The translations under genes were made by a program, and so were the position numbers. Of a stretch of DNA of 64,000 bases, positions 6,389-56,960 are shown one piece after another. This DNA is from an uncultured bacterium. Its GTDB lineage: Bacteria; Patescibacteriota; Minisyncoccia; Phycocordibacterales; CAIZLB01. The stretch is from positions 44,840 through 108,839 of the forward strand of contig CAIZVZ010000009.1 in the NCBI GenBank assembly GCA_903936565.1. The letters run 5' to 3'. The notes under the pieces are model-generated. The model saw only the letters and a list, made by a program, of their open reading frames with translations, was not told the DNA's origin and searched no databases. Numbering within the stretch: the stretch's first letter is position 1; each line of letters starts with the position of its first letter.

Positions 6389-6398
6389 ATAAATTTAA

Positions 6399-7139: not shown

Positions 7140-7211
7140 TTTTAAAGTATAACATAATTGTCACACTCGGCTTCCAGCGTTTTCTCAGCAAATCACACAA
7201 CTAAGTAACCT

Positions 7212-8024
7212 CTATTTGGTCAGCAAAACAACCCTACTTAATTCCTTCAAGCCCTTAATCAACATCTTCCTCCTTTTATCTTCGGCTGAAATCTCGGCCT
7301 TAATGTAAAAGATATATTTACCCAGTTCTTTCTTAGATGGTCTTGATTCAATTTTTAGTAAATTAATCTTTTCTTGCTTAAACACAGAAAGAATATCATG
7401 CAATATTCCGGGTCTATCAATCTTTGGATCTATAACAAAAAGCGTAAAAGGTAAAGATGCCACATTATCATTTTTAGAAATAACAACGAACAATGTCTGA
7501 TTATTTTTTACATCCTGAATATTTTCTTCAATAATAGGTAATTTATAAATACCTGCGGCGAACTTGGAGCCAATTGCTAGTGAGTCCTTTTTTCCATCTT
7601 CTTTAACTTTTTTGATTGCAAAAGAAGTGCTTGGTGTTTGAACCAGCTTAGCTTTTGGATATCTCTCTTTCAAGTATGCTCTACATTGCCCCAAAGCTTG
7701 TGGATGAGAATAGATATATTTAACTTTACTAGGCAATATCTTATTATCAATTCCAGCAATAACATGCTCGATATTTACAATTATTTCTTTATTTATTTTT
7801 AAATTATTATAATAAATACCATCTAGAGTTTCCAACACTGTCCCTTGAATTGAATTTTCGATAGGCAAAACAGCTTCTGTGATTTTATCCGAAGCTAAGG
7901 CATTTATAGTCTCATCAATACTATCAAATAGGATGCGACCCTCATTTTTATTGTACTCAAAAGAAGCCTGCTCAGAGTATGAGCCCTTTGGTCCAAGTGT
8001 CCCCATATATTTTTCTGAAATCAT
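7212..8024 (-). CDS. pheA: prephenate dehydratase (PDT domain plus C-terminal ACT domain)
   Basis: LGPKGSYSEQA N-terminus and an ESRPSKK motif (the ESRP signature of PDT). ACT-like C-terminal region. Confidence 0.75.
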   Translation of the reverse strand: MISEKYMGTLGPKGSYSEQASFEYNKNEGRILFDSIDETINALASDKITEAVLPIENSIQGTVLETLDGIYYNNLKINKEIIVNIEHVIAGIDNKILPSKVKYIYSHPQALGQCRAYLKERYPKAKLVQTPSTSFAIKKVKEDGKKDSLAIGSKFAAGIYKLPIIEENIQDVKNNQTLFVVISKNDNVASLPFTLFVIDPKIDRPGILHDILSVFKQEKINLLKIESRPSKKELGKYIFYIKAEISAEDKRRKMLIKGLKELSRVVLLTK

Positions 8025-8038
8025 ATACTTATTATTTG

Positions 8039-12129: not shown

Positions 12130-12771
12130 ATGGTAAATAAAAATAACGTTAAGGTTGCTGTGTTTGCAGCATTCACCACTATAATCCCATTCAGCGGACA
12201 CGCTGAGGGTGGCGAAAAAAGCAAAAATTACAACCAAAGCGGAAATGGCGCAATGGGTAAACTCGAACAATACACCTTGTCCGTCAGGGCAACGAAGTAT
12301 CACAAGACCGAACCTAATTGTGACATCGACACAAAGCATGAGCGATCATGCACAGGTGTTAGACTCCGAGAAGGAGCGCCTGGGGTCATCGGAACTGTTG
12401 CCGTTGACCCAAATGTTATACCGTTTGGTTCATTGGTTCTAATCAACACAAAAAGCGGGAGCGTGCTTCCGTACTTATGTGTTGACAAAGGAGCGTATGT
12501 AACCAAGAAAATCGCCTCGCAAAAACTTGCAAAACAAGAAAAGCGAGGGGAGGCATGGGCTACACGCCCAGTGATTGACGTATATTCCCCCAAATCAATC
12601 ACGAGCGACTGGACAACAGTACTCGTGATTAAGGGCCCTTCCTTGAGGGGTCTGAATGATGCGGAGAGACTAAAGCGCCTGCAAGAGCGCATGTCTGTCA
12701 ATTACTGGATGTCCATGGGGCTTGAGACGCCGGCGCAACAAAGACGCCAGCTCCTAGCCTGCAATCAGTAA
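12130..12771 (+). CDS. secreted 3D-domain protein (MltA/YuiC-like cell-wall-binding domain)
   Basis: Signal peptide. C-terminal 3D-domain motifs (TASG-like CTGVRLREG, VAVDPNVIPFGS, D-rich). Confidence 0.65.
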   Translation: MVNKNNVKVAVFAAFTTIIPFSGHAEGGEKSKNYNQSGNGAMGKLEQYTLSVRATKYHKTEPNCDIDTKHERSCTGVRLREGAPGVIGTVAVDPNVIPFGSLVLINTKSGSVLPYLCVDKGAYVTKKIASQKLAKQEKRGEAWATRPVIDVYSPKSITSDWTTVLVIKGPSLRGLNDAERLKRLQERMSVNYWMSMGLETPAQQRRQLLACNQ

Positions 12772-14946: not shown

Positions 14947-15393
14947 ATGAAACCAGTTATCTTAGTCTTGTTTGCAACAATCTGCTACGCAATCGCCAAC
15001 TCAATTCTCGAGACGAGGTTGTCAAAGTACAACCCACTTTCATTAATGATTTGCTATTTGCCTATTGTGCTGACATGCGCAGTTCTTGCACGCGTCTTCA
15101 CCAAAGTGGAGAATCCATCCTTCGATTTCCCAACAGGGAGCGCTGTCGCTGCGGTAGTTATCCTAGGAGTAGTATACTCCGTAGCTGACTACCTATACAT
15201 CGGCTCATACGCAGTGGGTGGATCGTCAATTACAATCACAAGTGTCCTGACGACGATGCCAATATTTGTCTCTGTCATCAAACTGCTGTCAGATGGCAAA
15301 CTCCCCAACAAATGGCAAATTGGCAGTTACGTTCTAATTTGCATCGCCCTCGCATTAATGGCAAAAGGCAGCGCTGTTACAACGACAAAATAA
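14947..15393 (+). CDS. hypothetical 4-TM membrane protein (148 aa)
   Basis: Hydrophobic segments. Confidence 0.45.
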   Translation: MKPVILVLFATICYAIANSILETRLSKYNPLSLMICYLPIVLTCAVLARVFTKVENPSFDFPTGSAVAAVVILGVVYSVADYLYIGSYAVGGSSITITSVLTTMPIFVSVIKLLSDGKLPNKWQIGSYVLICIALALMAKGSAVTTTK

Positions 15394-16830: not shown

Positions 16831-17121
16831 CTAAAGCTTCCTAATATTCATGATGCTCCCTGTTGGTCCGCCAACACTGTTTGATATAACCGTCATTATA
16901 CCAAAAACGGTGAACATTATTGCAAATCCAATAATACTCCATAATATATGATTTCTACCTGTCTCCCTTGCTTTTGGATCGCCCGCTCCTCTTACATACT
17001 TAAAAACACCCCATAAGAAAACCACCATTGCAACCGCAAATCCCAAGACAATAAGTGGATTAATTACAAATCTGTTTATAGAGCTTATAAGTGCCTGAAG
17101 TGCAGGAGGTATATTTCCCAT
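16831..17121 (-). CDS. small two-TM VirB2/TrbC-like pilin-like protein, paralog 1 (96 aa)
   Basis: Hydrophobic helix, charged loop (GAGDPKARETGRNH), second hydrophobic helix. Shares the FLWGVFK motif with neighbours. Confidence 0.55.
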   Translation of the reverse strand: MGNIPPALQALISSINRFVINPLIVLGFAVAMVVFLWGVFKYVRGAGDPKARETGRNHILWSIIGFAIMFTVFGIMTVISNSVGGPTGSIMNIRKL

Positions 17122-17178
17122 AATTATTTTATATTATTTATTAGATAAAATTACTCAATGTGAGCAATATACCGATAA

Positions 17179-17502
17179 TTATCTTAATTGAATTGAACCA
17201 TTCGCTGATGGTACGCCAGGAGCTTGAGGAACGTTTTGATTCAAACTGAATGTACTTGTTAGAAGATTTACCAATCCCCAAACTGATACCATCACAGCAA
17301 GACCAATAATACCCCAAATGATGTATCCTCTAGCCTCTGCTCTAGCTTCAGAATCCTTTGAGGAGAAAACTAGTTTAAAGATACCCCACAAGAAAAACAG
17401 AACCGTAAGACTTATAACGTAAGGAATAAGCCTTGTCGTGAAATCACTCACTTGCGCGAGTAACGCATAAAGGCCGCTAATTCCAGGTTGTGCAGTGTTC
17501 AT
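17179..17502 (-). CDS. VirB2/TrbC-like pilin-like protein, paralog 2 (107 aa)
   Basis: FLWGIFKLVFSSKDSEARAEARGYIIWGIIGLAVMVSVWGLVNLL. Same architecture as paralog 1. Confidence 0.55.
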   Translation of the reverse strand: MNTAQPGISGLYALLAQVSDFTTRLIPYVISLTVLFFLWGIFKLVFSSKDSEARAEARGYIIWGIIGLAVMVSVWGLVNLLTSTFSLNQNVPQAPGVPSANGSIQLR

Positions 17503-17624
17503 AATTAAATTATTTTTATTAAATGATAAGCTTATCTTTTATATAAGTAACTGAATGTCACTTATTACTATTATACATCACTATTTGAAAGTTACATACA
17601 TAGTCAACAAAAAAGCTGTGGATT

Positions 17625-17927
17625 CTAAAAAAGTCTAGGAGATGGAAAACCGGGGACCATTGCACCTGTTACACCAAAACCAAAAAAGGATATCAACAAA
17701 TTGACCAATCCCCATATCGATACCATAACAAACAATGCAACAACTCCCCATACAATATAGCCTTTAGCTTGTGCCCTTTCCTTAGAATCCCTATTAGAAA
17801 AGACTAATTTAAAAATTCCCCAAAGGAAAACCAGTACAGTCAGTATTAATATGAATGCGATAAACTTGTTAATAAAACCTATCAAAAATGGTACCAACCC
17901 CCTTGCTCCGTTCGAAGTATTTAGCAT
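17625..17927 (-). CDS. VirB2/TrbC-like pilin-like protein, paralog 3 (100 aa)
   Basis: FLWGIFKLVFSNRDSKERAQAKGYIVWGVVALFVMVSIWGLVNLL. Confidence 0.55.
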   Translation of the reverse strand: MLNTSNGARGLVPFLIGFINKFIAFILILTVLVFLWGIFKLVFSNRDSKERAQAKGYIVWGVVALFVMVSIWGLVNLLISFFGFGVTGAMVPGFPSPRLF

Positions 17928-17952
17928 GTTAGTTAATTAGTATCAATATTTA

Positions 17953-18267
17953 TTAATTAAGCTGAGGAATCAACAATCCTCCTGAGAAGAAGGTTGTTGT
18001 CAAAAGGTATACTAAGCTCCAAACAGAAATCATTACAGCGAGCCCGACAATTCCATAGGTAATAAAGGCGATTCCCTCTTGTCTTTTTTTAGGATCAGCC
18101 CCTGATGTTACAGTTTTAAAAACGCCCCATAAAAAAACCAGCAGTGCTAATGAAATAATAAAGGGTACAATATAGCCCCTAATTATATCTATTAAACTAG
18201 CAACAAGACTTCTGAAATCGTATACACCATTCACTTGTGCCATTAAAGAATTTTTATTTAAATCCAT
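17953..18267 (-). CDS. VirB2/TrbC-like pilin-like protein, paralog 4 (104 aa)
   Basis: FLWGVFKTVTSGADPKKRQEGIAFITYGIVGLAVMISVWSLVYLL. Confidence 0.55.
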   Translation of the reverse strand: MDLNKNSLMAQVNGVYDFRSLVASLIDIIRGYIVPFIISLALLVFLWGVFKTVTSGADPKKRQEGIAFITYGIVGLAVMISVWSLVYLLTTTFFSGGLLIPQLN

Positions 18268-18322
18268 TTTTATAAGTTAAGCTAATAATTTATTCTACCA
18301 TAGTCCAAATTTAGACTCCATA

Positions 18323-18727
18323 CTATTGCCCACTACCAACCTGCATAATTGTGGTTCTAACAACAATAGAAATTGCTTGTGCGCCAAAAATTATGGCGAC
18401 ACCAATAACAACATATAGAAGCATGGTTCTTGCCTTCGTAATCTTTGCAGGGTCCCCAGCCGCCAAGACAAACTTCAGACCAGCAAGGATGATGTATACA
18501 ACAGATAGGACACCAGCAATGATCTGAACTGTAGTAATTATAATGCTCAAAACTTGATCAAGGGTTGTCGTGCTACCTAGGGGGTTAGTAATTCTTCCAC
18601 TGGTATCATTGGTTGTATCTGCATATACCATGTTGGCATGTGGTGTGGTCACAAAACTTAGACCGAATACCGACACTAGCATCATGGCTCCCATAACTGT
18701 GTGTAAAATTAATTTATTTTTTTTCAT
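18323..18727 (-). CDS. VirB2/TrbC-like pilin-like protein with signal peptide, paralog 5 (134 aa)
   Basis: Signal peptide, then VYIILAGLKFVLAAGDPAKITKARTMLLYVVIGVAIIFGA. This is the classic VirB2 layout (signal peptide, helix, charged loop, helix). Confidence 0.55.
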   Translation of the reverse strand: MKKNKLILHTVMGAMMLVSVFGLSFVTTPHANMVYADTTNDTSGRITNPLGSTTTLDQVLSIIITTVQIIAGVLSVVYIILAGLKFVLAAGDPAKITKARTMLLYVVIGVAIIFGAQAISIVVRTTIMQVGSGQ

Positions 18728-18747
18728 TTTATTGACTTATTAACCTA

Positions 18748-19176
18748 TCATATTATGCTATCGTAAAAAAACGGATCAACACCCAAACTCTTTAGTATAA
18801 AGTATACAATAATCCAACCACAAAGTGTATATGCCAAACCCCACATCATCTTGGTGAGCATATCTCTTGCCTTCTTAACCTTGCCCACGTCCCCTCCTGA
18901 AGTCAAATACATAAACCCTGTGTAAAGAAGAACCAAAACTAACAATATCGCAATCAGTTGAACACCATAATGCACAATAGCGTTTATCAAGTTTATCAAA
19001 TCAACCCAACCGCATGATGCTCCGGCTAATGTACAGCCACTTAGGATATTGGACACTGGATTAACTGTATCTGCACCTGCGTATATCGGACTAAATACTG
19101 CAATAAGGGCAATCACAGCCACAAGCTTCATAGTTGGTATAAACGAGAACATTTTATAAAATTTAATTTTTATCAT
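18748..19176 (-). CDS. VirB2/TrbC-like pilin-like protein with signal peptide, paralog 6 (142 aa)
   Basis: Signal peptide, then VLLYTGFMYLTSGGDVGKVKKARDMLTKMMWGLAYTLCGWIIV. Confidence 0.5.
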   Translation of the reverse strand: MIKIKFYKMFSFIPTMKLVAVIALIAVFSPIYAGADTVNPVSNILSGCTLAGASCGWVDLINLINAIVHYGVQLIAILLVLVLLYTGFMYLTSGGDVGKVKKARDMLTKMMWGLAYTLCGWIIVYFILKSLGVDPFFYDSII

Positions 19177-21321: not shown

Positions 21322-21876
21322 ATGCCGAAAGAATTCGCTGCAAAACAAAGTCCACGACTGGCTATTATCCTCTGTGGAAGTAGCCGCATTTCCGCAACCA
21401 AGCTATGTGAAATGATGGTTAAAACCGCAAGTCACATCGACCAAATTGCAAACGACCGACCGTTAAACCTCTTGGAAATTGGAATCCCTGACGAGGCGGC
21501 GTACACTGCTCTTATTGAGGCGCTAGGAACTGAAAAAATTAGATCCAGCAGCACCTTAGCTAAGGGCCCAGGCCCGCTGAATGAGGATGAGGTCATCCAA
21601 TTCCTTGAATCAGCAAGAGTGACTACAGACAACACCGTCAGCGTTGTCGTCGTCCAAGACAAGAACGATGGGGCACTATTGATAGACGCCATCGCTCGGC
21701 GTCATTTCAATCGGGAAGTGTCCGCACCAGAAGGTCGTCAATTGGCCGAACTTGGATGTTACACTGCCTTTAAGCCAAAGGGAGGAGGAAGATTCCGAAG
21801 ACTCGACAACCCAATACGTCATGACCTATCCCACATACATGGCCCACCCAAAGCCAGGCAAGGGAAAAAAGATTGA
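21322..21876 (+). CDS. hypothetical protein (184 aa), GC-richer orphan
   Basis: Complete ORF at about 50% GC. Followed by the GC hairpin at 21908. Confidence 0.4.
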   Translation: MPKEFAAKQSPRLAIILCGSSRISATKLCEMMVKTASHIDQIANDRPLNLLEIGIPDEAAYTALIEALGTEKIRSSSTLAKGPGPLNEDEVIQFLESARVTTDNTVSVVVVQDKNDGALLIDAIARRHFNREVSAPEGRQLAELGCYTAFKPKGGGRFRRLDNPIRHDLSHIHGPPKARQGKKD

Positions 21877-21907
21877 CTGACGGGAAGGAAATTAACCAAC
21901 ACCCAAA

Positions 21908-21935
21908 GGGCCGCCCAGATTCGTCTGGGCGGCCC
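21908..21935. terminator. GC hairpin (gggccgcccagattcgtctgggcggccc) between convergent genes
   Basis: Perfect 11 bp stem. Weak T-tract. Confidence 0.4.
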
Positions 21936-21989
21936 TCCATCATTCCTGACAAAAGAAATTCTTGTTACAGGCACATATATATTTATATA

Positions 21990-27080: not shown

Positions 27081-27200
27081 GATTAAAAGTAAAGGGTGCA
27101 GGCACAATTTCTTTATTTTGTACGGCCAATGTTGGAGCCAAACTGCTGTTTGATTCCAACGCTGGCTGTACAACTTATGTGAAGCGCGCCGACGATGCAC

Positions 27201-27240
27201 AACACCAAAACCCGCATGAAAGTGCGGGTTTTGGTGTTGT
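27201..27240. terminator. perfect 17 bp-stem hairpin (caacaccaaaacccgcatgaaagtgcgggttttggtgttg)
   Basis: Palindrome followed by ttggggggg. Lies about 120 nt after the rpsA stop. Confidence 0.4.
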
Positions 27241-27322
27241 TGGGGGGGCTAAATTAGATATTCAGCCTGCCATTACGCCGCATTATGGCCGTCTCAAAGC
27301 AGCCTCGCCACCCTTACGTGGC

Positions 27323-27350
27323 TTGACATTTTGTATATGTGTGATAATAT
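27323..27350 (+). promoter_or_regulatory. sigma70-like promoter TTGACA-16-TAATAT with extended -10 (tgtgaTAATAT)
   Basis: Consensus -35 and near-consensus -10 about 60 nt upstream of the structured leader. A related promoter sits before the second cassette (28203). Confidence 0.5.
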
Positions 27351-27411
27351 TTTATAGGTATAGCTCCTTCACAAGCGCGATACATATTTTGGTGAAGTAG
27401 AGTTGAAAATT

Positions 27412-27510
27412 GGAAACTTCTTCTGAACACGGTTTTGATTGCACATTTCTTTGTATTTTACTAAGTACAAAGAAATGTGCAATCAATCCTACGTTAGGAA
27501 GAAGTTGCCA
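27412..27510 (+). promoter_or_regulatory. conserved ~100 nt structured leader (nested hairpin), copy A
   Basis: Outer stem ggaaacttcttc/gaagaagttgcc encloses a 21 bp perfect inner stem ttgattgcacatttctttgta/tacaaagaaatgtgcaatcaa. A covarying homolog lies upstream of the next gene (28296-28395). Confidence 0.5.
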
Positions 27511-27538
27511 AACCAACGACCAATCAACAACACAGCAC

Positions 27539-28117
27539 ATGAATAAATCAATAGCCCATACCATTTTTTACTATTTATTACTACCATTTCTGATTACACT
27601 TGGTTTAATTTTATTGATAGGATTTATAGTAAAAATCAATACCCGCCCACCCCAAAATCAGGGCAGCAGTTTGGAGTACACGGTGATGGTGAGGGACAAA
27701 ATCGCCATACTGCACATGATGGCAATTAAACTGGAAGAAAAGATCGGAGAACTCGATAGCCAGGGGGTCATCGATCAAGAATTCCTCCCATCGACCATCC
27801 AAGAAAAATGGGAGAAATCAGGGAGGAGTGGAAGCATTGCCTTCAATCGAGTTGTAGAAATCGCCATCGGACAAGTTCTTCTAATGAGTGAATTGCTCAA
27901 GAACGATGTGACCAGTGAATCTTCACCGACGTTTGGCCATATTGCTCGCACGAAAACAACCGTACAAGTAAATACCGCTCGACGAACAACGTACGATCAA
28001 CTCCAGGCCATGATGGCCAAATATGAACAACAACCGGAGTATTTACCTTGGTATCAAATTCCAAAGTTTTATGACACTCTCGAACCCGTAACACTGACCC
28101 CTCTCGAGGGAAAGTGA
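27539..28117 (+). CDS. small N-terminally anchored hypothetical protein, cassette paralog A (192 aa)
   Basis: Start chosen at the Met after the leader (MNKSIAH...). N-terminal TM. The C-terminal region shares ELLKNDV...TKTT with paralog B. Confidence 0.55.
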   Translation: MNKSIAHTIFYYLLLPFLITLGLILLIGFIVKINTRPPQNQGSSLEYTVMVRDKIAILHMMAIKLEEKIGELDSQGVIDQEFLPSTIQEKWEKSGRSGSIAFNRVVEIAIGQVLLMSELLKNDVTSESSPTFGHIARTKTTVQVNTARRTTYDQLQAMMAKYEQQPEYLPWYQIPKFYDTLEPVTLTPLEGK

Positions 28118-28127
28118 CAAAAACAAA

Positions 28128-28166
28128 ATCCGTCTCGCCCTCAGGGGCGCGGCGGATGTTTTTTAA
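28128..28166 (+). terminator. rho-independent terminator (conserved between cassettes)
   Basis: atccgtctcgccctcaggggcgcggcggat followed by gtttttt. Confidence 0.6.
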
Positions 28167-28202
28167 TTTATATGTTTTTAATAAATAGTCACCACCCCCC
28201 CC

Positions 28203-28231
28203 TTGACATTATACACATATGTGCTACTATT
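28203..28231 (+). promoter_or_regulatory. promoter-like TTGACA-16-TACTAT, homolog of 27323
   Basis: ttgacattatacacatatgtgctactat aligns with ttgacattttgtatatgtgtgataatat. Confidence 0.4.
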
Positions 28232-28295
28232 ATATAGTTATAGATCTTTTACATCCCTACTGAACACCTTGATGTTTTTTGATTTAAAATTCTTT

Positions 28296-28395
28296 TAAGC
28301 ATTCGGTTTGATTGCACATGCTTCTGTATTTATTTAATAAGTACATAAGCATGTGCAACCAATCCTACGAGAGGACGAAGTTGCCGAAACCAACA
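28296..28395 (+). promoter_or_regulatory. structured leader, copy B (covarying hairpin)
   Basis: Inner stem ttgattgcacatgcttctgta/tacataagcatgtgcaaccaa, followed by caatcctacgagaggacgaagttgccgaaacc. The stem middle differs from copy A, but pairing is preserved. Confidence 0.45.
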
Positions 28396-28413
28396 ACCAC
28401 TACTACCACTACC

Positions 28414-28947
28414 ATGAAATCAACAATCGCTATTCTGTCCCTCACCGGCGCTCTGGTCTTTACGGGCCTCACGGCTCTTGCCCAGTACAAAAGGGCCGAA
28501 ACCTTCAGGGACCAACTCCTTGAAATCGTCCACAACAGGACGGTTTTGACGGATAAGGTCACAGCCGAAAAGGTTGAGGTCATGCAAAAGATGGCGGACA
28601 ATCTGAAGAAGAAATTCGGCGACATCGACGACCTCGGTACCATGAAAATGTGGTGCACACCAAAGGCAATTCAAGGCCGCTGGAGTGACCACCTTAAGGG
28701 GTCGCCGACAGACAGGGACATCTACCTCGAGGCAGACATCGACAATGCTATCGTTGACCTCCTCTTTACGGAGGAGTTACTCAAGGACGACGTCCCTAGC
28801 CCCAACCAAAGGTACCGGGACATTGTCCAGCTCAAGACCACCGACCAAGAACAGGCCGCGATTCGAGCGGCATATGAACAACGTGATGAAATTGTCGCGC
28901 CATTCCAAAAGCGCATCAATGACATCATGAACAGGACCAGAGAATAA
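28414..28947 (+). CDS. small signal-peptide or N-terminal TM-anchored hypothetical protein, cassette paralog B (177 aa), GC-rich
   Basis: MKSTIAILSLTGALVFTGLTALA. C-terminal ELLKDDVPSPNQ...LKTTDQ resembles paralog A. GC is far above the genome background. Confidence 0.55.
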   Translation: MKSTIAILSLTGALVFTGLTALAQYKRAETFRDQLLEIVHNRTVLTDKVTAEKVEVMQKMADNLKKKFGDIDDLGTMKMWCTPKAIQGRWSDHLKGSPTDRDIYLEADIDNAIVDLLFTEELLKDDVPSPNQRYRDIVQLKTTDQEQAAIRAAYEQRDEIVAPFQKRINDIMNRTRE

Positions 28948-28980
28948 CCCGCCACTTGGCGGACCTCCGGTGCAAAAACA

Positions 28981-29018
28981 AATCCGTCCACCCTCCGGGG
29001 TGTGGCGGTGTTTTTTTA
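28981..29018 (+). terminator. rho-independent terminator, homolog of 28128
   Basis: atccgtccaccctccggggtgtggcggtg followed by tttttttat. Confidence 0.6.
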
Positions 29019-29157
29019 TTTGATTTATATTACTTCATTACCTAGTCCACACTCTCTAGATGAAGTTACCTAAACAACGTATTATTATGGCGGTCTCAGA
29101 TAGATATCTTTGACAAAGATTAATTGTACAAAACCGAACCAAGAAAGAACCAGATAA

Positions 29158-29739
29158 GTGAATGGAATACTCAGCAGAGAAATTGAAGCCAGATTCATTG
29201 TAAGCATTTGCCCCGAAGAAAAGGAGCCCGAGCAACTACGGCAGCTTACAATTGACCAACGATACTTGCGTGCCAAGGGACGCATCCGGCGTGTACGAAC
29301 CAAGATAGCTGGACAAGACAAAGAAAAGACGTCCGTTGTCTTGAATCGAAAATGGAAAATGGCGAATACGCTTGGAGGTAATTGGGAGATGGAACTCTGT
29401 CTTCCTAACACCTTCTTCATCGCCAGATTTTGCTTTTGGTTTCTGACCAAATTCCTCAGCGATCCAGCCTGTTACCCCATTCACAAGACCAGAACTGTTT
29501 ACGAATGGGATGGCGGCATGGAACTTGAATGGGACATATTCGCCAGCCAGCATGCCTTACCAGATGGACCATTTGGAATGTTGGAAGTTGAAGTGAGTGC
29601 AGGTTTTGACCTCGCTACGCTACAGGCCAAACTTCCCAAGTGGTTCGAGGTAAAGGATGACGTCACAGGACAAGCGTACTGGAGTAATGTGAATATTTCC
29701 CGACGGCTCCAAAGGATTTACCGCGGAAGAAGACAGTAA
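29158..29739 (+). CDS. CYTH-like (triphosphate tunnel metalloenzyme) domain protein (tentative)
   Basis: N-terminal EIEARFIV matches the CYTH EIERKFLV signature. An alternating-acid LEVEVS motif lies near the C-terminus. GC-rich. Confidence 0.45.
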   Translation: MNGILSREIEARFIVSICPEEKEPEQLRQLTIDQRYLRAKGRIRRVRTKIAGQDKEKTSVVLNRKWKMANTLGGNWEMELCLPNTFFIARFCFWFLTKFLSDPACYPIHKTRTVYEWDGGMELEWDIFASQHALPDGPFGMLEVEVSAGFDLATLQAKLPKWFEVKDDVTGQAYWSNVNISRRLQRIYRGRRQ

Positions 29740-29760
29740 TTTCACACTACACCCCCAACA

Positions 29761-29792
29761 AGACGGGCCGCGACAGCGGCCCGTCTTTTCTA
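29761..29792 (+). terminator. rho-independent terminator
   Basis: agacgggccgcgacagcggcccgtct followed by tttct. Confidence 0.6.
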
Positions 29793-29823
29793 ATATACTT
29801 TTCAAAATATTTAGAGCTATTTT

Positions 29824-30990
29824 CTACAATATCTCTATAACCCCACTCTCCATATCAATCACAATCATATCCCCTTCCTTTAAAACCTTTGATGCATTTC
29901 TTGTTCCAACCACTGTTGGAATTTGTAATTCTCTTGAGATAATTGCTGGGTGACTCATTAATCCACCAAAATCAGTTACAACAGCCAAAGCTTTTTTCAT
30001 AAACGGTAAGTGATCAACAGTAGTCATTGGACTTACAAAAATCACATTCTCCGGTAACTCAACTAAATCATCTCTAAACAAACAAACCCTACCTTCCACC
30101 TTCAAATCTTTTTTATAAACAACAAGACCCTGTATTCTAGATTGGTCTCTACCTGTTGTGCTACCACCAACATCAACCCCAACTTCATCACCACCTTCAA
30201 CCTTTCTCTTAAATTGCAAGATAGCATCTTTAACAGAAATATTATTTGAGATTCTCTTTGTGTTCATATCAGTGAAGGCACTATCTCCATTTTTACCCTC
30301 CACATATTCATAATATCCAATTACATATCCATCAGAAGTCTCATATCCAGCTTCATTTAATTCCGCATCTTTACCATTTGTAGATAATTTATTTAAAATT
30401 TCATTAACTTTTGCCACCATCACTTCATTTTTTGATAAAACAACAACTGGGGAATTCGGTTCTTTAAAAAATGATACGGCACTCTTCCCTTCCTTTACAG
30501 AATCCATGTATGTCAGAACATACAAATCATCATCAACAACCTCTCCAATAATTCCATCTTTTGTAATCAAAATGACCGCCGAAAATCCAAGTGGTGAGCC
30601 TCTAAAATTTGTGATTCGAACCTCTGCCTTATCTAGTGGAATTTCAAGTGTCTTTAATTTATCACTAAATTCATTGAATGTTAGACCATAATGTTTTTGA
30701 ATATCGAAGATGTTTGCAAACCCTTCCATTGGTGCAACTCTAAATGCATGCTGAATATTTTCACCGCCTCTATCCTCAATAACCGATGATAAATCTTTAG
30801 AATTGATATCAAAACTGGAGAGCGGTAAAACATGCGTTTTATTGATTGGTAATCCAATTGTCTTATTTAAAAAAGTTAACCTTTCCGCTTTCTTATTATC
30901 ATATGCAATTGCATCAGCTATTACATCATCATGTTCTTTTGTCTTTGCTAGCCAGTTTATTATTGAAGTAAATCCTTGTTGAAGTTCCAT
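29824..30990 (-). CDS. PEP-utilising enzyme, central region plus C-terminal mobile phospho-His domain
   Basis: C-terminal GGLMSHPAIISRELQIPTVVG...GDMIVIDMESGVIEIL matches the PEP-utilisers swivelling domain (PF00391-type). Confidence 0.65.
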   Translation of the reverse strand: MELQQGFTSIINWLAKTKEHDDVIADAIAYDNKKAERLTFLNKTIGLPINKTHVLPLSSFDINSKDLSSVIEDRGGENIQHAFRVAPMEGFANIFDIQKHYGLTFNEFSDKLKTLEIPLDKAEVRITNFRGSPLGFSAVILITKDGIIGEVVDDDLYVLTYMDSVKEGKSAVSFFKEPNSPVVVLSKNEVMVAKVNEILNKLSTNGKDAELNEAGYETSDGYVIGYYEYVEGKNGDSAFTDMNTKRISNNISVKDAILQFKRKVEGGDEVGVDVGGSTTGRDQSRIQGLVVYKKDLKVEGRVCLFRDDLVELPENVIFVSPMTTVDHLPFMKKALAVVTDFGGLMSHPAIISRELQIPTVVGTRNASKVLKEGDMIVIDMESGVIEIL

Positions 30991-31031
30991 AATTTTATTT
31001 TATTATTTATTAATTTATCATCTTAAACAAT

Positions 31032-31967
31032 TCAGGCTGTTATTGGCCTGCTTTGTAATATGTGAAGCGTACCCCTCTCATAGGCCCACTCAACATCAGA
31101 CGGCGCACCAAAATATTCTTCAATTAATTTTACGGTTTTAACCAATTTTACTAATTGATTATCAGATAATGATTGAGTAGATACTTTTTCTGGTAATACA
31201 TCTATCCATTTTGTATTCCCACCAATCTCAACTGAAAGTGCCGTGTCTTTTTGTGCAATATTTGTATTTAATATTTCCAATGTATCCTTATGCACAACAA
31301 AGCAGTCTGGAATAATAGCACCAGAAACAAGCGCCTCGCCTAAGCCAAAGCAAGATTCAATATAAATATGTTTATCATTTTTTGTTTGAGGATGAACAGA
31401 AAAAGCAACTCCGGATGATTCTGAATTAATCATTTTTTGTATTAAAACTGACATACCCCAATTATCCCCGACGCCCTTCTTTGTAATCTTGTAATATATT
31501 GCTCTGGGAGAATAGACTGACGCCCAACACTTTTTAATGTACTCAATTATTTTATTTTCACTGACATTTAAATATGATTCAAATTGTCCCGCCCAAGTAT
31601 TTAGAGCTCCATCCTCAACAACCGCCGAAGATCTGACAGCAACAAAATCTGTTTGGAGATTTTCAAACACTCCCCCTATTTCTTCCGCAACCTCCTCTGA
31701 AATAGATCCACCCAAAATCAAGTCTTTAATTTTATTGGACACGTCATTTAAATCGTAGCTCTTTTCTAAATCAACCAAACTCAATAGTTTTTCTATTTTT
31801 TCCTTTAAATTATTATCTTCCAAGAAGTAGTTCCAATGCTCTGTTGTAACCACAAAACCATCTGGCACTGGAATACCAGACCTTATCATCTTCGCCAAAG
31901 ACAGGGCCTTTCCACCAACTAGCCCGATATCAGAATCTTGAATTTTGTTTAAATTAATCAATTTCAT
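31032..31967 (-). CDS. pyruvate phosphate dikinase / PEP synthase N-terminal ATP-binding (PPDK_N) domain protein
   Basis: VGGKALSLAKMIRSGIPVPDGFVVTT, ending DVEWAYERGTLHILQSRPIT (the characteristic PPDK_N end). Its stop is 41 bp upstream of the next ORF start. Confidence 0.7.
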   Translation of the reverse strand: MKLINLNKIQDSDIGLVGGKALSLAKMIRSGIPVPDGFVVTTEHWNYFLEDNNLKEKIEKLLSLVDLEKSYDLNDVSNKIKDLILGGSISEEVAEEIGGVFENLQTDFVAVRSSAVVEDGALNTWAGQFESYLNVSENKIIEYIKKCWASVYSPRAIYYKITKKGVGDNWGMSVLIQKMINSESSGVAFSVHPQTKNDKHIYIESCFGLGEALVSGAIIPDCFVVHKDTLEILNTNIAQKDTALSVEIGGNTKWIDVLPEKVSTQSLSDNQLVKLVKTVKLIEEYFGAPSDVEWAYERGTLHILQSRPITA

Positions 31968-32062
31968 GCTGTTACATAGAACAATACAGAAATTGATTTT
32001 AAAATGTAAGTGAGGAGTTCCTCGCTAAATTAATCGTTCTTTTACCACCAGAGCTAGTAAAA

Positions 32063-32794
32063 TCACGGCATCTTATCCCCCTTCCTCACGCTCTCGGTGA
32101 CAAACATCGGCATTCTATGAACAGAACCATCTTTGATAGCCTTCAATACAGTTGTAATTCCAACAATTGAATCAAATGGGTCAGATTCATTTTCAATTGC
32201 CTTATCGATTGGAACCCACATATTTTTACCATACGCAGTCTCCTCTAATATTTCGCCATAACATTCATCAGAATATGTAATAGGAAATAACATATCAGCA
32301 AATAATTCATCCTTTACATACATTAATCTTCTCTCCATTCCGATAAGTTTAAAAGATGCCTCAAGCCCAGTCTCCACTTGCAGCTTTCTATTTGCCGCAT
32401 CTTCAATTGACTCACCTTTTCTAACAACACCACCCATGACACCAACCTTTCCGAAAGATGGATGAGAGGTTCTAAGTTGATTTAAAATTTGAATTTCTTT
32501 GTTATGAATTCTGGAAACTATTGTAATAACATTTAATTTAAAAAGCCCAGCTGAGTCAGGCTTCTCAGGTTTAGTAAAAGGATCCGCCATATACTTAACA
32601 CCAAACTCAGATAATGAATATCCATCTTTTGCTTTATTTAAAAAACCTTTCTTAACTAAAAATTGCAAATGATAATTAAATAAATCATTTGGAACATCCT
32701 TAAACTGAATATCACTGTAACGCAGTGAACTCTCATTTTTCAAAGTCCTAAGAATTCGATTCTGTATGGGAGAGAGAATATTTATATTATTCAT
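32063..32794 (-). CDS. winged-helix plus degenerate Nudix-like domain protein (putative regulator)
   Basis: N-terminal wHTH-like segment. Middle GGVVRKGESIEDAANRKLQVETGLE resembles a degenerate Nudix box. Confidence 0.35.
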   Translation of the reverse strand: MNNINILSPIQNRILRTLKNESSLRYSDIQFKDVPNDLFNYHLQFLVKKGFLNKAKDGYSLSEFGVKYMADPFTKPEKPDSAGLFKLNVITIVSRIHNKEIQILNQLRTSHPSFGKVGVMGGVVRKGESIEDAANRKLQVETGLEASFKLIGMERRLMYVKDELFADMLFPITYSDECYGEILEETAYGKNMWVPIDKAIENESDPFDSIVGITTVLKAIKDGSVHRMPMFVTESVRKGDKMP

Positions 32795-32923
32795 GGTTGA
32801 GTATTATCTAGATACTATACTATATATTGAGTGTTTTTGTAATCAGAACCTCAAAATCAGATTGACATATCAGTACTAGCATGATATATTCATGTCGCTA
32901 ATCACTGTAGGGAAAGGCCCTCT

Positions 32924-33358
32924 TTGGTGGCAAACATCAACTCACAGAACTACATGAAATCGAATGCTAGACTCGTAACACGTTACCGAGGAAATCAAAT
33001 TGTCACTCGCCTCTTTTACAACAAACAAGTAGGCAGCAGTCCTAATGCAAAACCCGGGGGAATTGAAGATCCTGTGGTGACAGTCAAAAAGCGAAGACAA
33101 AATGGTGGGCCGCTTCAAGGTATTGGACAGACTGCCGAGTTGGCAATCCGTAGATTCCTTATCGTGAATCGGCGCCGACTGGAACGTGACATCGACAAAC
33201 CCTATTGCATCTCACGGGTGGACATGGATGAAATTCTGGCGTCGGAGAAGGTGGAATTGGAACAACAACCAGGAGAAGCCGAAAGGAAGTTTCTGGATAA
33301 AGTATGCCGCCACCTACACGTCACCATCGAACTCACTCCAGGATCACCCCGTTGGTAG
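32924..33358 (+). CDS. hypothetical basic protein (144 aa), GC-rich orphan
   Basis: Complete ORF with elevated GC and its own terminator at 33444. Confidence 0.4.
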   Translation: MVANINSQNYMKSNARLVTRYRGNQIVTRLFYNKQVGSSPNAKPGGIEDPVVTVKKRRQNGGPLQGIGQTAELAIRRFLIVNRRRLERDIDKPYCISRVDMDEILASEKVELEQQPGEAERKFLDKVCRHLHVTIELTPGSPRW

Positions 33359-33443
33359 CCGGTAGCGACCTAACAAGACCGTCTGGGAATAATTGCGGTC
33401 ATCACATCAAACCTGCACGGCGTCATATACGTCTTGCAGAAAC

Positions 33444-33476
33444 AAAACCCCGAACCAGCGTGGGTTTTTTCTTTTG
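33444..33476 (+). terminator. rho-independent terminator (aaaaccccgaaccagcgtgggttttttctttt)
   Basis: Hairpin plus T-run. Confidence 0.55.
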
Positions 33477-33498
33477 TAATTTTATACTTGTAACCCGT

Positions 33499-36990: not shown

Positions 36991-38259
36991 ATGGCAAAAG
37001 GTCGCAATCTAGCAGTCGGAATAGATGTAGGAACACACCAAATTAAAGTTTTGGTGACAGAGCTTGAGCCTGCTGAATTTCAATCCGAAGAAAAAGGAAA
37101 AGGTGTTGGTTTTAATACTCCAAGAATAATTGCTTCCGCTACAGTTGAAACAAAAGGGATGCGACACGGATATGTTACAAACGTTGCAGAATTATCAAAG
37201 TGTATAAGGACCGCAGTAAACATCGCAGAGAAGAATTCTGGCATTCCGATTAAGAAAGCTTATGTTTCAATCGGTGGTGTCGGACTTGGTGCAATCATTG
37301 CTGTTGGATCCGTTGTCACCACAAAGGCAGATTCAGAGATCACAGACCTAGATGTTAAGCGTGCGATTGAAGAAAGTGAAAAGGAATTACCTAGCACCTA
37401 CATCTTAAACAGAAAAATAATTCACTCGATTCCACTAGAATACAAAGTTGACGGAAGAAAGGTTCTCGGTCGTCCTCAGGGACTGAAGGGGGTAAAGCTA
37501 GAAGCAAGAGTTCTCTATATCACCTGTCTCGCCCATCACTTCACTGATTTACTAAACGCCTTCGATGATGCCAATGTTGAAATGAGAGATATTGTTGCAG
37601 CACCAATTGCAGCAAGCTTGGTATCGCTCACAAAGACTCAAAAAATTGCAGGTTGTATTCTTTTAAATATTGGATCAGAAACTAGTTCAATAATTGTTTA
37701 TGAAAATAATATTCCAGTATCAATGGAAGTTTTCCCGGTTGGATCTAACGATATAACAAATGACATTGCACTAGGTCTTAAAGTTTCAATAGAAGAAGCT
37801 GATCAAATAAAAATGTCTGTTTCAAGCGACCCCAACACAATTGCATCCGCAAGCGCATCGCTTCCTACATTTTCGAAAAAGAAATTAGATGAAATAATTA
37901 TCGCCAGACTATCTGATATTTTTGATTTGGTTGAGAATCATTTAAAGAAAATTGACAGAAACGGACTACTACCTGCTGGAATAATTCTAACAGGTGGAGG
38001 AAGTGGGCTTATTAATATTGAAGAATTAGCACGCGAAGCATTACGTCTTCCATCAAAGCGCCATACATTGAAATTGGAGGGAAACTTAAAAGGTATCGGC
38101 CGAGAGTTCGAATGGTCAGTTGCATACGGTTTGACCATTTTAGCCTTCTCTTCACCGGACGATAGAGGTGATATTGGTTCAGGTGGACTAAGTGCGGTGG
38201 GTGCATTCAATAAGCTGAAAAAGATGATTATTGAGTGGGTCAAGCAGTTTTTGCCATAG
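36991..38259 (+). CDS. ftsA: cell division protein FtsA
   Basis: Actin-like ATPase with an N-terminal LAVGIDVGTHQIKVLV and a C-terminal amphipathic tail. Sits upstream of ftsZ. Confidence 0.9.
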   Translation: MAKGRNLAVGIDVGTHQIKVLVTELEPAEFQSEEKGKGVGFNTPRIIASATVETKGMRHGYVTNVAELSKCIRTAVNIAEKNSGIPIKKAYVSIGGVGLGAIIAVGSVVTTKADSEITDLDVKRAIEESEKELPSTYILNRKIIHSIPLEYKVDGRKVLGRPQGLKGVKLEARVLYITCLAHHFTDLLNAFDDANVEMRDIVAAPIAASLVSLTKTQKIAGCILLNIGSETSSIIVYENNIPVSMEVFPVGSNDITNDIALGLKVSIEEADQIKMSVSSDPNTIASASASLPTFSKKKLDEIIIARLSDIFDLVENHLKKIDRNGLLPAGIILTGGGSGLINIEELAREALRLPSKRHTLKLEGNLKGIGREFEWSVAYGLTILAFSSPDDRGDIGSGGLSAVGAFNKLKKMIIEWVKQFLP

Positions 38260-38376
38260 TCTTACATATTTTCGATTAATGAAAAAGGCCTGCCGCTGGA
38301 ACGACAGGCCGATTGTTGGTTATTGATTTAGTTTATTGAGCTAGTTTGACTGTTTTCATCCAGCAGTCAATTACTG

Positions 38377-38631
38377 TTACTTCTTGTCGGCAATTGCCTT
38401 GGCAATTGCCGTACAACCATCCCTGACAGCAGAGGCAATAATGTCCCCAGAGCGTTCAATGGTTGCTGCAAACACCAAAGTCAAGCCCACGATGGCAATG
38501 CCCGCATGACCACACTCGAAGGCCACACCCGATCCCGTGATGATAAAACCCACGGCGACTATTCTACTATTGATCTTCAGACTTTTTGGCATACTAGCTA
38601 CCTTTAATACCTGTAAATCTAAGCTTTTCAT
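38377..38631 (-). CDS. small GC-rich hydrophobic orphan protein (84 aa) inserted between ftsA and ftsZ on the opposite strand
   Basis: About 50% GC. A minus-strand hairpin plus T-run lies downstream at 38285-38315 (ggcctgtcgttccagcggcaggcc, then ttttt). Confidence 0.4.
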   Translation of the reverse strand: MKSLDLQVLKVASMPKSLKINSRIVAVGFIITGSGVAFECGHAGIAIVGLTLVFAATIERSGDIIASAVRDGCTAIAKAIADKK

Positions 38632-38887
38632 TGACTTAACAACGTGGCACCAGCCCAGATGTCAATCAGATTCCTTCCGAGAAATCCAACCTTACTGACA
38701 TCCTTTTACTTAGCAGAGAATTCGGCGACTCCTCCACATATATTATGATATACACAACCTATCATGTCAAGCGCTTTATGACACACCCAACTCTAGAACA
38801 CCAAAAGTCAATATTGCCTTGATTTTCCGTAAATGGTAGTATAAAGCCCAAGTAAACGTTAACCATAATCGAAATAACAGAAATAAT

Positions 38888-40198
38888 ATGCCACAGGTAA
38901 AAACAGACGTAGAGACATTTGCAAGAATAAAAGTTGTTGGTGTTGGAGGTTCAGGAAAAAACGCAATCAACCACATGATCAACTCCAAAGTTAAGGGTGT
39001 TGATTTTCTTGCAATAAATACTGACGCACAAGATCTACATCACTCAATGGCAAAAAGGAAAATTCACATCGGAAAAAATCTTACTAAAGGATTGGGTGCC
39101 GGAATGAATCCAGAAGTTGGTCGACAAGCAGCAGAGGAAACAAAAGAAGAAATTCAAGAAGCACTAAAGAATTCTGACATGGTTTTTGTTGCTGGAGGAT
39201 TAGGTGGAGGAACAGGATCAGGTGCATCCCCTATCGTTGCAAAAATTTCTAAAGAAATGGGAGCTCTAACTGTTGGAGTCGTTACAAAGCCTTTTTCATT
39301 CGAAGGACAACAACGTATGCGCCTTGCAGAACACGCACTTGAAGAATTGAGTAAAGCAGTTGATGCTCTTGTTGTAATTCCAAACGACAAACTTCTAGCC
39401 GCAGTCACAAAAGACACAACAGCAAAGAACGCGTTTGCAATGTGTGATGAGGTCCTAAAGCAAGCCGTTGAAGGAATTTCAGAACTTATCACAACTCCTG
39501 GAACAGTTGGAAACATTGACTTTGCGGACATCCGAGCAGTCCTTGAGAATGCAGGTCCAGCCCTTATGGGAATTGGTTCAGCATCAGGTGAGAAGAGAGC
39601 AGAGGAAGCAGCTCGTGCAGCAATCAGCTCTCCCCTACTCGATGTTTCAATTCATGGCGCAAAGGGCGTACTATTCTCTATCGCAGGTAACGACGATTTA
39701 ACTATGTGGGAAATCCAAGAGGCAGCAAAGCTTATCACAGACTCAGTTGACCCTGATGCGAAGATTATCTTTGGAACAGTCAAGGATGAAAGACTAAAGA
39801 AAAATGAATTAAAGATTACAGTTATTGCTGCAAACTTCCCTGATAATAGTGCAATAAGAAAAACTATTTTCGATAGTATGTCATCAAGAAATTCTGCTCC
39901 AGTTTTTGGATCAAAAGAAACAATAGAGCGACCTGAGAGACCAGCTTCTTCAAATGTAGAAATAAACACGACAACTCCACAAAATGTTGAAGTTCAAGTT
40001 CAAACAAAGAGTGAGGAAAGCAAAGGTAAGATTCACAACACAATTCATACTCCATCTACAAACACTGCACATAGTACTCCAAAAACAATTGAGGAAACAA
40101 AGGAGGAGGAGAACCCAAATGCCCCACTACAAGGCGTTCAGGACGATGATGATGAATGGAATTCAATTCCAGCATTCCTAAGAAGAGCGAAGAAGTAG
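38888..40198 (+). CDS. ftsZ: cell division GTPase FtsZ
   Basis: GVGGSGKNAINHMI. Tubulin signature GGLGGGTGSGASPIVA. Disordered C-terminal linker. Confidence 0.95.
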   Translation: MPQVKTDVETFARIKVVGVGGSGKNAINHMINSKVKGVDFLAINTDAQDLHHSMAKRKIHIGKNLTKGLGAGMNPEVGRQAAEETKEEIQEALKNSDMVFVAGGLGGGTGSGASPIVAKISKEMGALTVGVVTKPFSFEGQQRMRLAEHALEELSKAVDALVVIPNDKLLAAVTKDTTAKNAFAMCDEVLKQAVEGISELITTPGTVGNIDFADIRAVLENAGPALMGIGSASGEKRAEEAARAAISSPLLDVSIHGAKGVLFSIAGNDDLTMWEIQEAAKLITDSVDPDAKIIFGTVKDERLKKNELKITVIAANFPDNSAIRKTIFDSMSSRNSAPVFGSKETIERPERPASSNVEINTTTPQNVEVQVQTKSEESKGKIHNTIHTPSTNTAHSTPKTIEETKEEENPNAPLQGVQDDDDEWNSIPAFLRRAKK

Positions 40199-40216
40199 GC
40201 AATTTTTATGCGTAAA

Positions 40217-40294
40217 AATTGTGCCAAAATCAGCAGATTTTGGCCGTATTTGTAAACGTGCAAATTGTGCCAAAATCAGCAGATTTTGGCCATA
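40217..40294 (+). repeat. two copies of a 32 bp hairpin-containing direct repeat (aaattgtgccaaaatcagcagattttggccRta), 46 bp period, just after the ftsZ stop
   Basis: Each copy contains the perfect palindrome gccaaaatcagcagattttggc. Copies at 40217-40248 and 40263-40294. Confidence 0.6.
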
Positions 40295-54647: not shown

Positions 54648-54790
54648 TTCCTCGGACCAAAATTACGTCCTTCTCCCCACTAGATTCCAAACACCGTGTT
54701 TTGAATCTAGATGAGGAGGGCAACATTAATGGAGTTGCCCGTGAACCTGTGGTGGTTCCCAGCAAGAGAAAAGTTCTTGCTACTTGTTTC
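54648..54790 (-). repeat. about 130-140 bp conserved structured leader, copy 1 (upstream of the TelA-like gene)
   Basis: About 95% identical to 56786-56915. Contains hairpins ctagattccaaacaccgtgttttgaatctag and gggcaac...gttgccc. Confidence 0.7.
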
Positions 54791-56785: not shown

Positions 56786-56915
56786 TTCTTCGGACCAAAT
56801 TACGTCCTTCTCCCTACTAGATTCCAAACACCGTGTTTTAAATCTAGATGAGGAGGGCAACATTAATGGAGTTGCCCGTGAACCTGTGGTGGTTCCCAGC
56901 AAGAGAAAAGTTCTT
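56786..56915 (-). repeat. conserved structured leader, copy 2 (upstream of telA)
   Basis: Near-identical to 54648-54790. Confidence 0.7.
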
Positions 56916-56960
56916 GCTACTTGTCTGAATCCCTAACCCCCTTGGGTCGGCGCCCCGCTG

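Follow-up and report, generated by a model that had tools for sequence, protein, structure and literature searches.

Why should two normally adjacent genes, ftsA and ftsZ, be separated by a small, GC-rich open reading frame (ORF) of opposite orientation, and how did it come to be there? The question is raised by a 64-kb stretch of contig CAIZVZ010000009.1 from an uncultured bacterium (the window, analyzed here at its full length), in which an ORF of 84 amino acids (aa), referred to as o84, occupies this position. Five other GC-rich ORFs, named after their first coordinates (o4666, o21322, o28414, o29158, and o32924), are found elsewhere in the window. A first-pass annotation had singled out these six ORFs and attributed them to repeated acquisition of small fragments from a high-GC donor. 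All six frames are open where it had placed them, with o84 lying between ftsA and ftsZ in minus-strand orientation, and their composition, anatomy, and distribution among related genomes lead us to a different reading. We consider it reasonably probable that the GC-rich ORFs are real, lineage-restricted, moron-like autonomous accessory cassettes that reside at recombination hot spots between core operons.

The GC content of the window is 38.8%, higher than the background of about 36% assumed in the first-pass annotation, and its 61 called genes have a median GC of 0.385 and a median GC at third codon positions (GC3) of 0.305, with a robust standard deviation of GC3 of 0.058. A per-gene GC check bears out the GC richness of the six ORFs, which have a GC of 0.47-0.52 and a GC3 of 0.46-0.66, corresponding to robust z values for GC3 of 2.7-6.2. 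The only further GC3 outliers are the Ter island and the genes at 14947-15393 and 12130-12771. For five of the six ORFs, the length exceeds that obtained in mononucleotide shuffles of the ORF's own slot (P<=0.0075). A GC-rich hairpin with a T-run is present downstream of all six, as claimed before, while o84 and o21322 use bidirectional terminators that belong to ftsA and gyrA, respectively; these two are shared rather than private, because they are conserved in relatives without the ORF. Near-consensus promoters with a perfect TTGACA -35 element, as judged from consensus matches, are located upstream of o84, o32924, o28414, and g27410, the last being a tandem paralogue of o28414. None of the six ORFs has a match in Pfam, NCBIfam, or PADLOC, and the sole PHROG match among them is that of o29158 to phrog_6660, a family of unknown function. 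No Rfam RNA family was detected in any of the six ORF regions, either at the gathering thresholds or at E<=1, and this null result rules out a known structured RNA as the source of the GC richness.

The window is part of a Parcubacteria/Paceibacterota chromosome from a small freshwater genome. In a collection of species-representative genomes, the relatives of its FtsZ are exclusively metagenome-assembled genomes of Parcubacteria/Paceibacterota, many of them from freshwater lakes, and the nearest by aa identity are L006 (96%), L007 (91%), and L008 (85%; labels of this type denote relatives throughout). Contigs carrying exact window proteins are 100% identical clones of one population. The distance from ftsA to ftsZ in 79 related genomes is mostly 50-250 bp, in agreement with the statement that the two genes are normally adjacent, and it reaches 500-1800 bp in 15 of the 79.

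The ftsA-ftsZ slot is unusually changeable. At least five different contents are found among close relatives, and a 98-aa ORF on the minus strand in a further sister genome is counted apart from these. The slot holds a 71/84-aa membrane ORF in the window, a second small membrane ORF, not homologous to the first but preceded by a conserved copy of its promoter and leader, in L006, a 172-aa ORF in L008, and RhuM-Fic with a diversity-generating retroelement (DGR) in L170, L171, and L172, and it is empty in L007 (243 bp) and in L175 (a 124-bp gap). L170-L172 are 90% identical to the window until 14 nt beyond the ftsA stop codon, and then continue with RhuM-Fic, a reverse transcriptase, and bAvd. 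In L170 (L170:4284-7269), RhuM-Fic, the reverse transcriptase (RVT_1), and bAvd are followed by a GC-rich repeat-like stretch, and no target gene or variable repeat (VR) was identified before the end of the contig. The combination of RhuM-Fic, RVT_1, and bAvd in L170-L172 is a DGR. Relatives with a nucleotide identity of 85-90% either lack o84 or have unrelated cargo in its place. On the ftsZ side, the conserved block around 38814-38842 forms the right-hand edge of the variable slot, and the promoter-like element in it presumably acts as the ftsZ promoter. A DGR was also considered as the cause of the variability of o84 itself and was rejected, because the window has no reverse transcriptase, Avd, or match resembling a template repeat, and because the difference between species is complete non-homology rather than mutagenesis at adenine sites.

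Over the whole 79-genome set, the cargo of this slot includes small opposite-strand proteins, one of them with a weak sigma-70 region 4 match, large surface proteins, and an HD protein accompanied by a second protein, without a Pfam match, in whose N-terminus a CYTH-like motif can be read. Among the small proteins, L031/L050 and L056/L077 are homologous pairs. In more distant Paceibacteria, a small GC-rich minus-strand protein is encoded between ftsA and ftsZ at L029:5351-5908, L031:5023-5412, L036:5426-5794, L050:5333-5998, and L055:5352-5744. These proteins look by eye like helix-turn-helix or sigma-70 region 4 proteins, with a weak Pfam match in L029 and 36% identity between L031 and L050, and they may represent a recurrent regulator adjoining ftsZ.

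The other slots behave in a similar manner. The slot of o21322 extends from the gyrA terminator to the promoter of a methyltransferase gene. In L090, whose GyrA is 98% identical at the aa level, the flanks of this slot are conserved and the cargo differs, consisting of two ORFs of 132 and 188 aa (L090:8402-9216); L175 and L176 carry an ORF of 276 and 247 aa, respectively, L087 contains about 1 kb of other sequence, and the slot is empty in L091 and L092. The gyrA-methyltransferase junction is longer than 400 bp in 23 of 56 relatives, while the next junction, which is intra-operonic, has a median of 25 bp. The slot of o32924, between a NUDIX gene and pth, is filled in sister genomes either by a 584-aa gene and an NYN-domain gene or by a gene of the o28414 family. 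Judging from these comparisons, o21322 and o32924 are species-specific, and o21322 has no homologue among 5.8 billion clusters. A 3.6-kb segment that includes o4666 (4454-8038) is absent from L173, despite the close relationship seen in ClpB (97%) and IF-2 (98% aa identity), and a 142-aa ORF is present at the position and in the orientation of o4666 in another sister genome. Likewise, the 6.4-kb variable segment containing o28414, o29158, and o32924 (27081-33498) is absent from L175, L088, L091, and L092. Two of the six ORFs are distributed differently: o29158 has orthologues in three sister species that are 71-76% identical and occupy the corresponding place (GC 0.44-0.46), and the o28414 family is found in L007, L166, and L169 with 28-44% identity and a GC3 of 0.56-0.69, detectable at the protein level only. 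The first-pass view of the ORFs as acquired accessory genes is therefore upheld for o84, o21322, o32924, and the o4666 segment, whose presence is patchy in close relatives. It does not extend to o29158 and the o28414 family, which are patchy only at greater phylogenetic depth and which show the conserved position and similar GC that had been named beforehand as evidence against acquisition.

Two side observations concern L090. Its 188-aa ORF in the gyrA slot has an HNH-like motif by eye without a Pfam match, and its slot between the S1-domain gene and a Lactamase_B gene (L090:1424-4521) contains a PemK toxin and a RhuM protein, which are low-GC cargo of a defence or toxin type.

In the reading that we favour, a unit consists of its own promoter where one is detectable, a single ORF, and an intrinsic terminator, and it is lodged at a terminator/promoter junction between core operons. 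These junctions are hot spots: in close species the slot is empty or holds unrelated cargo, whereas the core genes on either side are kept along with their terminators and promoters. Cargo would enter by DNA uptake followed by recombination through the conserved flanks, and selection would tolerate insertions solely at operon boundaries. The cargo would derive from a mid-GC pool on which members of the clade draw, or which they share with their mobile elements, and it would look GC-rich here because a mid-GC pool is being compared with an AT-rich host. At the ftsA-ftsZ junction, the unit would express a 71-aa membrane protein from a promoter back-to-back with that of ftsZ. Saccharibacteria have been shown to be naturally competent and to take up a cassette into an intergenic site by way of homologous flanks (PMC10633639). 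Given this precedent, together with the conserved flanks, the variable cargo, and the insertions at operon boundaries, homologous recombination through the core flanks would be the most economical route. The expression of the units, the recombination route, and the functions of the products are putative; because most of the products are membrane or secreted proteins, they are probably related to the cell envelope or to host interaction.

The units resemble the phage moron (the concept of Hendrix and Juhala), in which one ORF is equipped with a promoter and a factor-independent terminator of its own and is situated between genes that are adjacent in relatives and atypical in composition; morons have no recombinase sites, and the mechanism of their acquisition is unknown (PMC4378225). 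The units in the ftsA-ftsZ, gyrA-methyltransferase, and NUDIX-pth slots likewise lie between genes that are adjacent in relatives and differ in composition from their neighbors, whereas o28414 and o29158 are located inside the larger variable segment. A factor-independent terminator follows all six ORFs, two of them borrowed from the convergent ftsA and gyrA, but three of seven cassettes (the tandem paralogue of o28414 included) have no detectable promoter. The units are moron-like rather than morons in the strict sense, because they are located in a bacterial chromosome of the Candidate Phyla Radiation (CPR), as indicated by ftsAZ, gyrA, clpB, IF-2, and the tRNAs, and not in a phage or prophage; in addition, some of them are conserved across several species. 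With flexible genomic islets and integration hot spots, they share conserved core flanks, differing cargo, atypical composition, and defence or toxin-type cargo in the sister slots (RhuM-Fic, PemK, and the DGR). Unlike such islets, they are single genes of 70-200 aa without tRNA or integrase anchors, and one of the slots splits the ftsA-ftsZ pair. Integron gene cassettes, which end in an attC site and have an intI integrase nearby, were rejected as a model, since no family of direct repeats is shared by the cassettes, no integrase was seen among the genes around them that were scanned against Pfam, and the cassettes are scattered rather than arrayed.

CPR/Patescibacteria have tiny genomes with few recognised mobile elements, and their gene gain and loss are poorly documented. 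The present set of loci shows single-gene cassettes, predicted to be self-expressing, that turn over at operon boundaries between species 85-90% identical, and the ORFans among them are candidates for roles in host interaction or defence. Current ideas are not overturned by these loci, which provide a clean small-scale case of a known process, ordinary genome flux.

Several results weigh against the accessory-cassette reading. The length of o84 by itself is not significant against shuffles (P=0.09), and its single-sequence AlphaFold2 (AF2) model is uninformative, with a predicted local distance difference test (pLDDT) score of 50 and implausible strands. A consensus scan found no convincing promoter for o4666, o21322, or o29158. 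Searches for homologues outside the lineage returned only self or sister-species matches for o84, o21322, and o29158 in large protein collections (o4666, o28414, and o32924 were not searched there), and none of the six ORFs had a tblastn match in phage and plasmid collections or in four IMG/VR scans. Because neither a donor nor an outside homologue was found, composition and patchy distribution are all that speaks for a foreign origin. High GC is not general to the flux, since much of the cargo in the same slots of sister genomes is low in GC (RhuM, PemK, the DGR, and DUF3800). No integrase, transposase, flanking repeats, or att-like sites lie beside the cassettes: no family of flanking direct repeats is common to them in a search of the window in which inverted repeats were not scanned, and no integrase occurs among those window genes, located around the cassettes, that were scanned against Pfam. 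Without mobility genes, repeats, or att-like sites, we can only infer the mechanism of insertion, and we know of no demonstration of competence in Parcubacteria. Finally, o29158 and the o28414 family, with the same place and GC in several sister species, are old residents or possibly native genes that were lost elsewhere.

Among the alternatives, the one that survives best is that o84 is not a gene, and that its frame is a by-product of GC richness in a decayed cargo remnant or a non-coding RNA. We consider this unlikely. The length and AF2 results given above would agree with it, as would the fact that phmmer, run exhaustively against 1.84 billion cluster representatives, finds nothing but o84 itself, the structured leader, and the presence of three overlapping ORFs of 76-82 aa in the counterpart region of L006; on the other hand, Rfam gave no match at E<=1. 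The window genes neighboring o84 are 82-88% identical to those of L006 at the nucleotide level, and L006 keeps the near-consensus promoter (TTGACA-17-CATATT), the leader of about 140 nt (81% identity), the Shine-Dalgarno (SD) sequence, the ATG, the hairpin after the stop codon, and the ftsA terminator. In L006, AGGTGA and the ATG are found at the homologous place, and the first ~8 codons are common to the two ORFs (shared motif MP(P)K-LKI), while the homology stops ~20 nt into the ORF and the body is unalignable. At the protein level, the two products are dissimilar (BLASTP E=0.12 over 7 residues; z ~0 in a global alignment). Nevertheless, the frame is open from the same ATG in both, a hydrophobic helix starts at residue 43-44 in both, and codon position 1 is 77% purine in o84 and G-rich/T-poor in the L006 ORF, all of which argue for coding. 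Because a neutral remnant would stay ~80% identical, as the leader does, the coding body of o84 has either been replaced or diverged under extreme pressure, relative to L006. The true start of o84 is likely Met14, which would give a product of 71 aa (38377-38592), because an SD-like AAGGT precedes it, the SD and ATG are conserved in L006, and other annotators also call this start. The product is hydrophobic, with a peak at residues ~35-58 of the 84-aa form, and the ORF has a GC of 0.47-0.50 and a GC3 of 0.49-0.53.

The proposal of the first-pass annotation, taken to mean that a single high-GC donor organism repeatedly supplied small fragments, recently and to this genome only, is decidedly unlikely. 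All six ORFs are GC3 outliers, the Ter island is GC-rich too, and the closest relatives lack o21322, o32924, and o84, as this proposal would have it, but the range of GC3 (0.46-0.66) makes the sources look heterogeneous, and o29158 and the o28414 family are common to several sister species at the same site. The searches described above also failed to reveal a donor: o84 and o21322 have no homologue outside the lineage, o29158 has orthologues in sister species only, and no phage, plasmid, or viral match was obtained. The composition of the cargo was examined in 101 slot ORFs of >=100 aa, collected from relatives across the clade between genes that neighbor each other in the window. The results show that cargo GC3 = 0.19 + 0.56 x core GC3 (r=0.54, n=101), and thus regresses to ~0.4. 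In AT-rich hosts the cargo is GC-richer than the core, by more than 0.15 in 13 of 40, while in GC-rich hosts it is AT-richer. Because cargo GC3 regresses to ~0.4 whatever the GC of the host, these data suggest that the cargo is drawn from a mid-GC pool shared in the clade, with partial amelioration, and not from one high-GC donor.

It is also rather improbable that the GC-rich ORFs belong natively to the lineage and evolve fast, as surface proteins would under diversifying selection, with their GC kept by selection or by GC-biased repair at recombination hot spots and their patchiness reflecting loss in relatives. The orthologues of o29158 and of the o28414 family fit this explanation, as they keep a GC3 of 0.47-0.69 over 28-76% aa identity at the same site, and so do the membrane or secreted nature of most of the products and the 142-aa ORF at the o4666 position in a sister genome. 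It does not account for the non-homologous cargo in the same slot of species that are 85-90% identical, nor for the more distant relatives that have empty slots with gaps of 16-170 bp, and no known mechanism in the clade would hold GC3 0.2-0.35 above that of the genome.

The weakest alternative, that the ftsA-ftsZ unit encodes a small membrane protein gated after transcription, as a type I toxin is or in some other way, with translation controlled by fold-back of the structured leader and of matching 5' and 3' hairpin arms (ATTGAC/GTCAAT) and with payloads exchanged between species, would explain the small hydrophobic product, the conserved ~140-nt leader with its compensatory pairs, the non-homologous payloads on a conserved platform, and the fact that the only two ATTGAC..GTCAA hairpins in the window bracket the ORF exactly, the 3' one covarying in L006, but it is very improbable given that a consensus scan found no antisense promoter, terminator, or small RNA, that 71 aa exceeds most type I toxins, that PADLOC, Pfam, and NCBIfam gave no match, that two sequences only support the structure, and that the hairpin motif is short. 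With small membrane toxins of type I toxin-antitoxin systems such as hok/sok and tisB, the unit has in common a small, predicted hydrophobic product, a long structured leader, 5' and 3' elements that could pair, rapid divergence, and an intergenic location; it differs from these systems in its product length of 66-71 aa and in that neither an antisense RNA or promoter nor a sequence or profile match was found.

Relative to the window, L006 has 2-3 compensatory changes in the predicted stem-loops of the leader and a single compensatory pair change in the 3' hairpin, in two sequences only, so the covariation is suggestive at most. The two ATTGAC..GTCAA hairpins, at 38631-38666 and 38346-38371, bracket the replaced part of o84 and are the only ones in 64 kb, while the motif is short and reaches >=3 matches in 16 of 100 whole-window shuffles. 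The platform of the ftsA-ftsZ slot follows the sequence pattern GGAGGAGTCGCCGAATTCTCTGCTAAGTAAAAGGA. We give little credence to the more specific proposal that the promoter opposed to that of ftsZ, the structured leader, the SD, and the first ~8 codons would together form a constant platform for expression, on which unrelated small membrane-protein payloads, possibly toxin-like or division-modulating and bounded by two hairpins with identical ATTGAC/GTCAA arms, would be swapped between species, and that such a platform would be peculiar to Parcubacteria. Two observations were made on sequences nearby. The 3' end of o84 (38384-38416) contains a tandem self-complementary 12-mer, GGCAATTGCCTT GGCAATTGCCGT, which encodes AIAKAIA and could fold as a perfect hairpin or cruciform. 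Just downstream of ftsZ, at 40202-40293, there are two tandem 46-nt repeats that are 87% identical; they look like a doubled terminator, because each holds the inverted repeat GCCAAAATCAGCAGATTTTGGC.

Table 1. Positions of the GC-rich ORFs and of associated elements in the 64-kb window
Feature	Coordinates	Strand	Description
ftsA	36991-38259		core gene flanking o84
ftsZ	38888-40198		core gene flanking o84
o84	38377-38631	-	small ORF in the ftsA-ftsZ slot; 84 aa from first ATG
o84 promoter	38742-38770	-	sigma-70-like, TTGACA-17-CATAAT, 11/12 consensus matches; divergent from the ftsZ promoter
o84 leader	38593-38735	-	~140 nt; predicted stem-loops
5' boundary hairpin	38631-38666	-	ATTGAC-N24-GTCAAT; overlaps first ATG
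3' boundary hairpin	38346-38371	-	ATTGACTG-N11-CAGTCAA; 6 nt past the o84 stop codon
Bidirectional intrinsic terminator	38287-38310	both	serves ftsA (+) and o84 (-); hairpin also in L007, without the ORF
ftsZ upstream promoter-like element	38814-38842	+	TTGCCT-17-TAGTAT; the surrounding block is also kept in L006 and L007
o4666	4666-5097	+	143-aa multi-pass membrane ORF; GC 0.49; GC-rich hairpin ~5111-5145
o21322	21322-21876	+	184-aa soluble ORFan; GC 0.49; converges on gyrA terminator 21904-21939
Variable segment	27081-33498		6.4 kb, S1-domain gene to pth; four GC-rich ORFs and low-GC PPDK_N, PEP-utilizer, and NUDIX genes
g27410	27410-28117	+	tandem paralogue of o28414, 29% identity; TTGACA promoter 27323-27350; terminator homologous to that of o28414
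o28414	28414-28947	+	177-aa ORF; N-terminal hydrophobic anchor or signal; GC3 0.66; promoter 28203-28230; terminator ~28974-29017
o29158	29158-29739	+	193 aa; putative divergent CYTH-like (triphosphate tunnel) protein; GC 0.48; terminator ~29760-29791
o32924	32924-33358	+	134/144-aa basic soluble ORFan; GC 0.49; promoter 32862-32890 (TTGACA-17-TATATT with TG); terminator ~33443-33475

The structural model of o29158 (AF2, from a five-sequence alignment) has 9-10 strands at a pLDDT of 62, and is predicted to adopt the CYTH triphosphate-tunnel beta-barrel fold. Its top Foldseek matches are the CYTH proteins 2fbl/3typ, 2een, 2dc4, and 1yem, with E values of 1e-4 to 1.5e-3 and probabilities of 0.98-1.0, while the template modelling (TM) scores are only 0.25-0.47. 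The model matches the eight-strand beta tunnel of CYTH enzymes such as NE1496 (PDB 2fbl/3typ), and its N-terminus carries an E-x-E-x-R motif (EIEAR) at the place of the CYTH motif ExExK; this motif, E8-x-E10-x-R12, is invariant in the five orthologues. Unlike CYTH enzymes, o29158 has R in place of the K of ExExK and a TM score of 0.39-0.47 at the above pLDDT; neither the Pfam CYTH profile nor any other sequence profile from Pfam, NCBIfam, or PDB matches it, and with the substituted ExExK it falls outside the family as so defined. Inside the variable segment, at 29824-31967 on the minus strand, a phosphoenolpyruvate (PEP)-utilising enzyme is split into a PPDK_N ORF (311 aa) and a mobile-domain ORF (388 aa) adjoining the NUDIX gene; both are low in GC and are 78-95% conserved in sister species.

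Apart from the genes discussed, the window contains, in addition to ftsA, ftsZ, gyrA, clpB, and the genes for IF-2 and the S1-domain protein, ybeY, rpsU, and eight tRNAs, together with an array of T4SS-pilin paralogues and the Ter island (TerC/TerD/vWA-TerF). The two GC3 outliers outside the six ORFs and the Ter island are both on the plus strand. The first (12130-12771; GC 0.48, GC3 0.50) is a 213-aa gene that sits between tRNA-Leu and tRNA-Lys and was missing from the first-pass list; it is overlapped by longer spurious antisense ORFs, and its product has an N-terminal hydrophobic stretch by eye and a weak 3D-domain match. The second (14947-15393; GC3 0.50) is a half-size EamA/DMT transporter gene with its own hairpin, whose product is the single member of its 90% cluster. 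The pilin array, at 16831-19176 on the minus strand, consists of five or six paralogous genes of ~100 aa (PF18895) and is kept in L090 and L175. In the Ter island, a 128-nt direct repeat (54660-54787 and 56797-56924, 98% identical) lies upstream of two genes, in the TerD and TerC neighborhoods.

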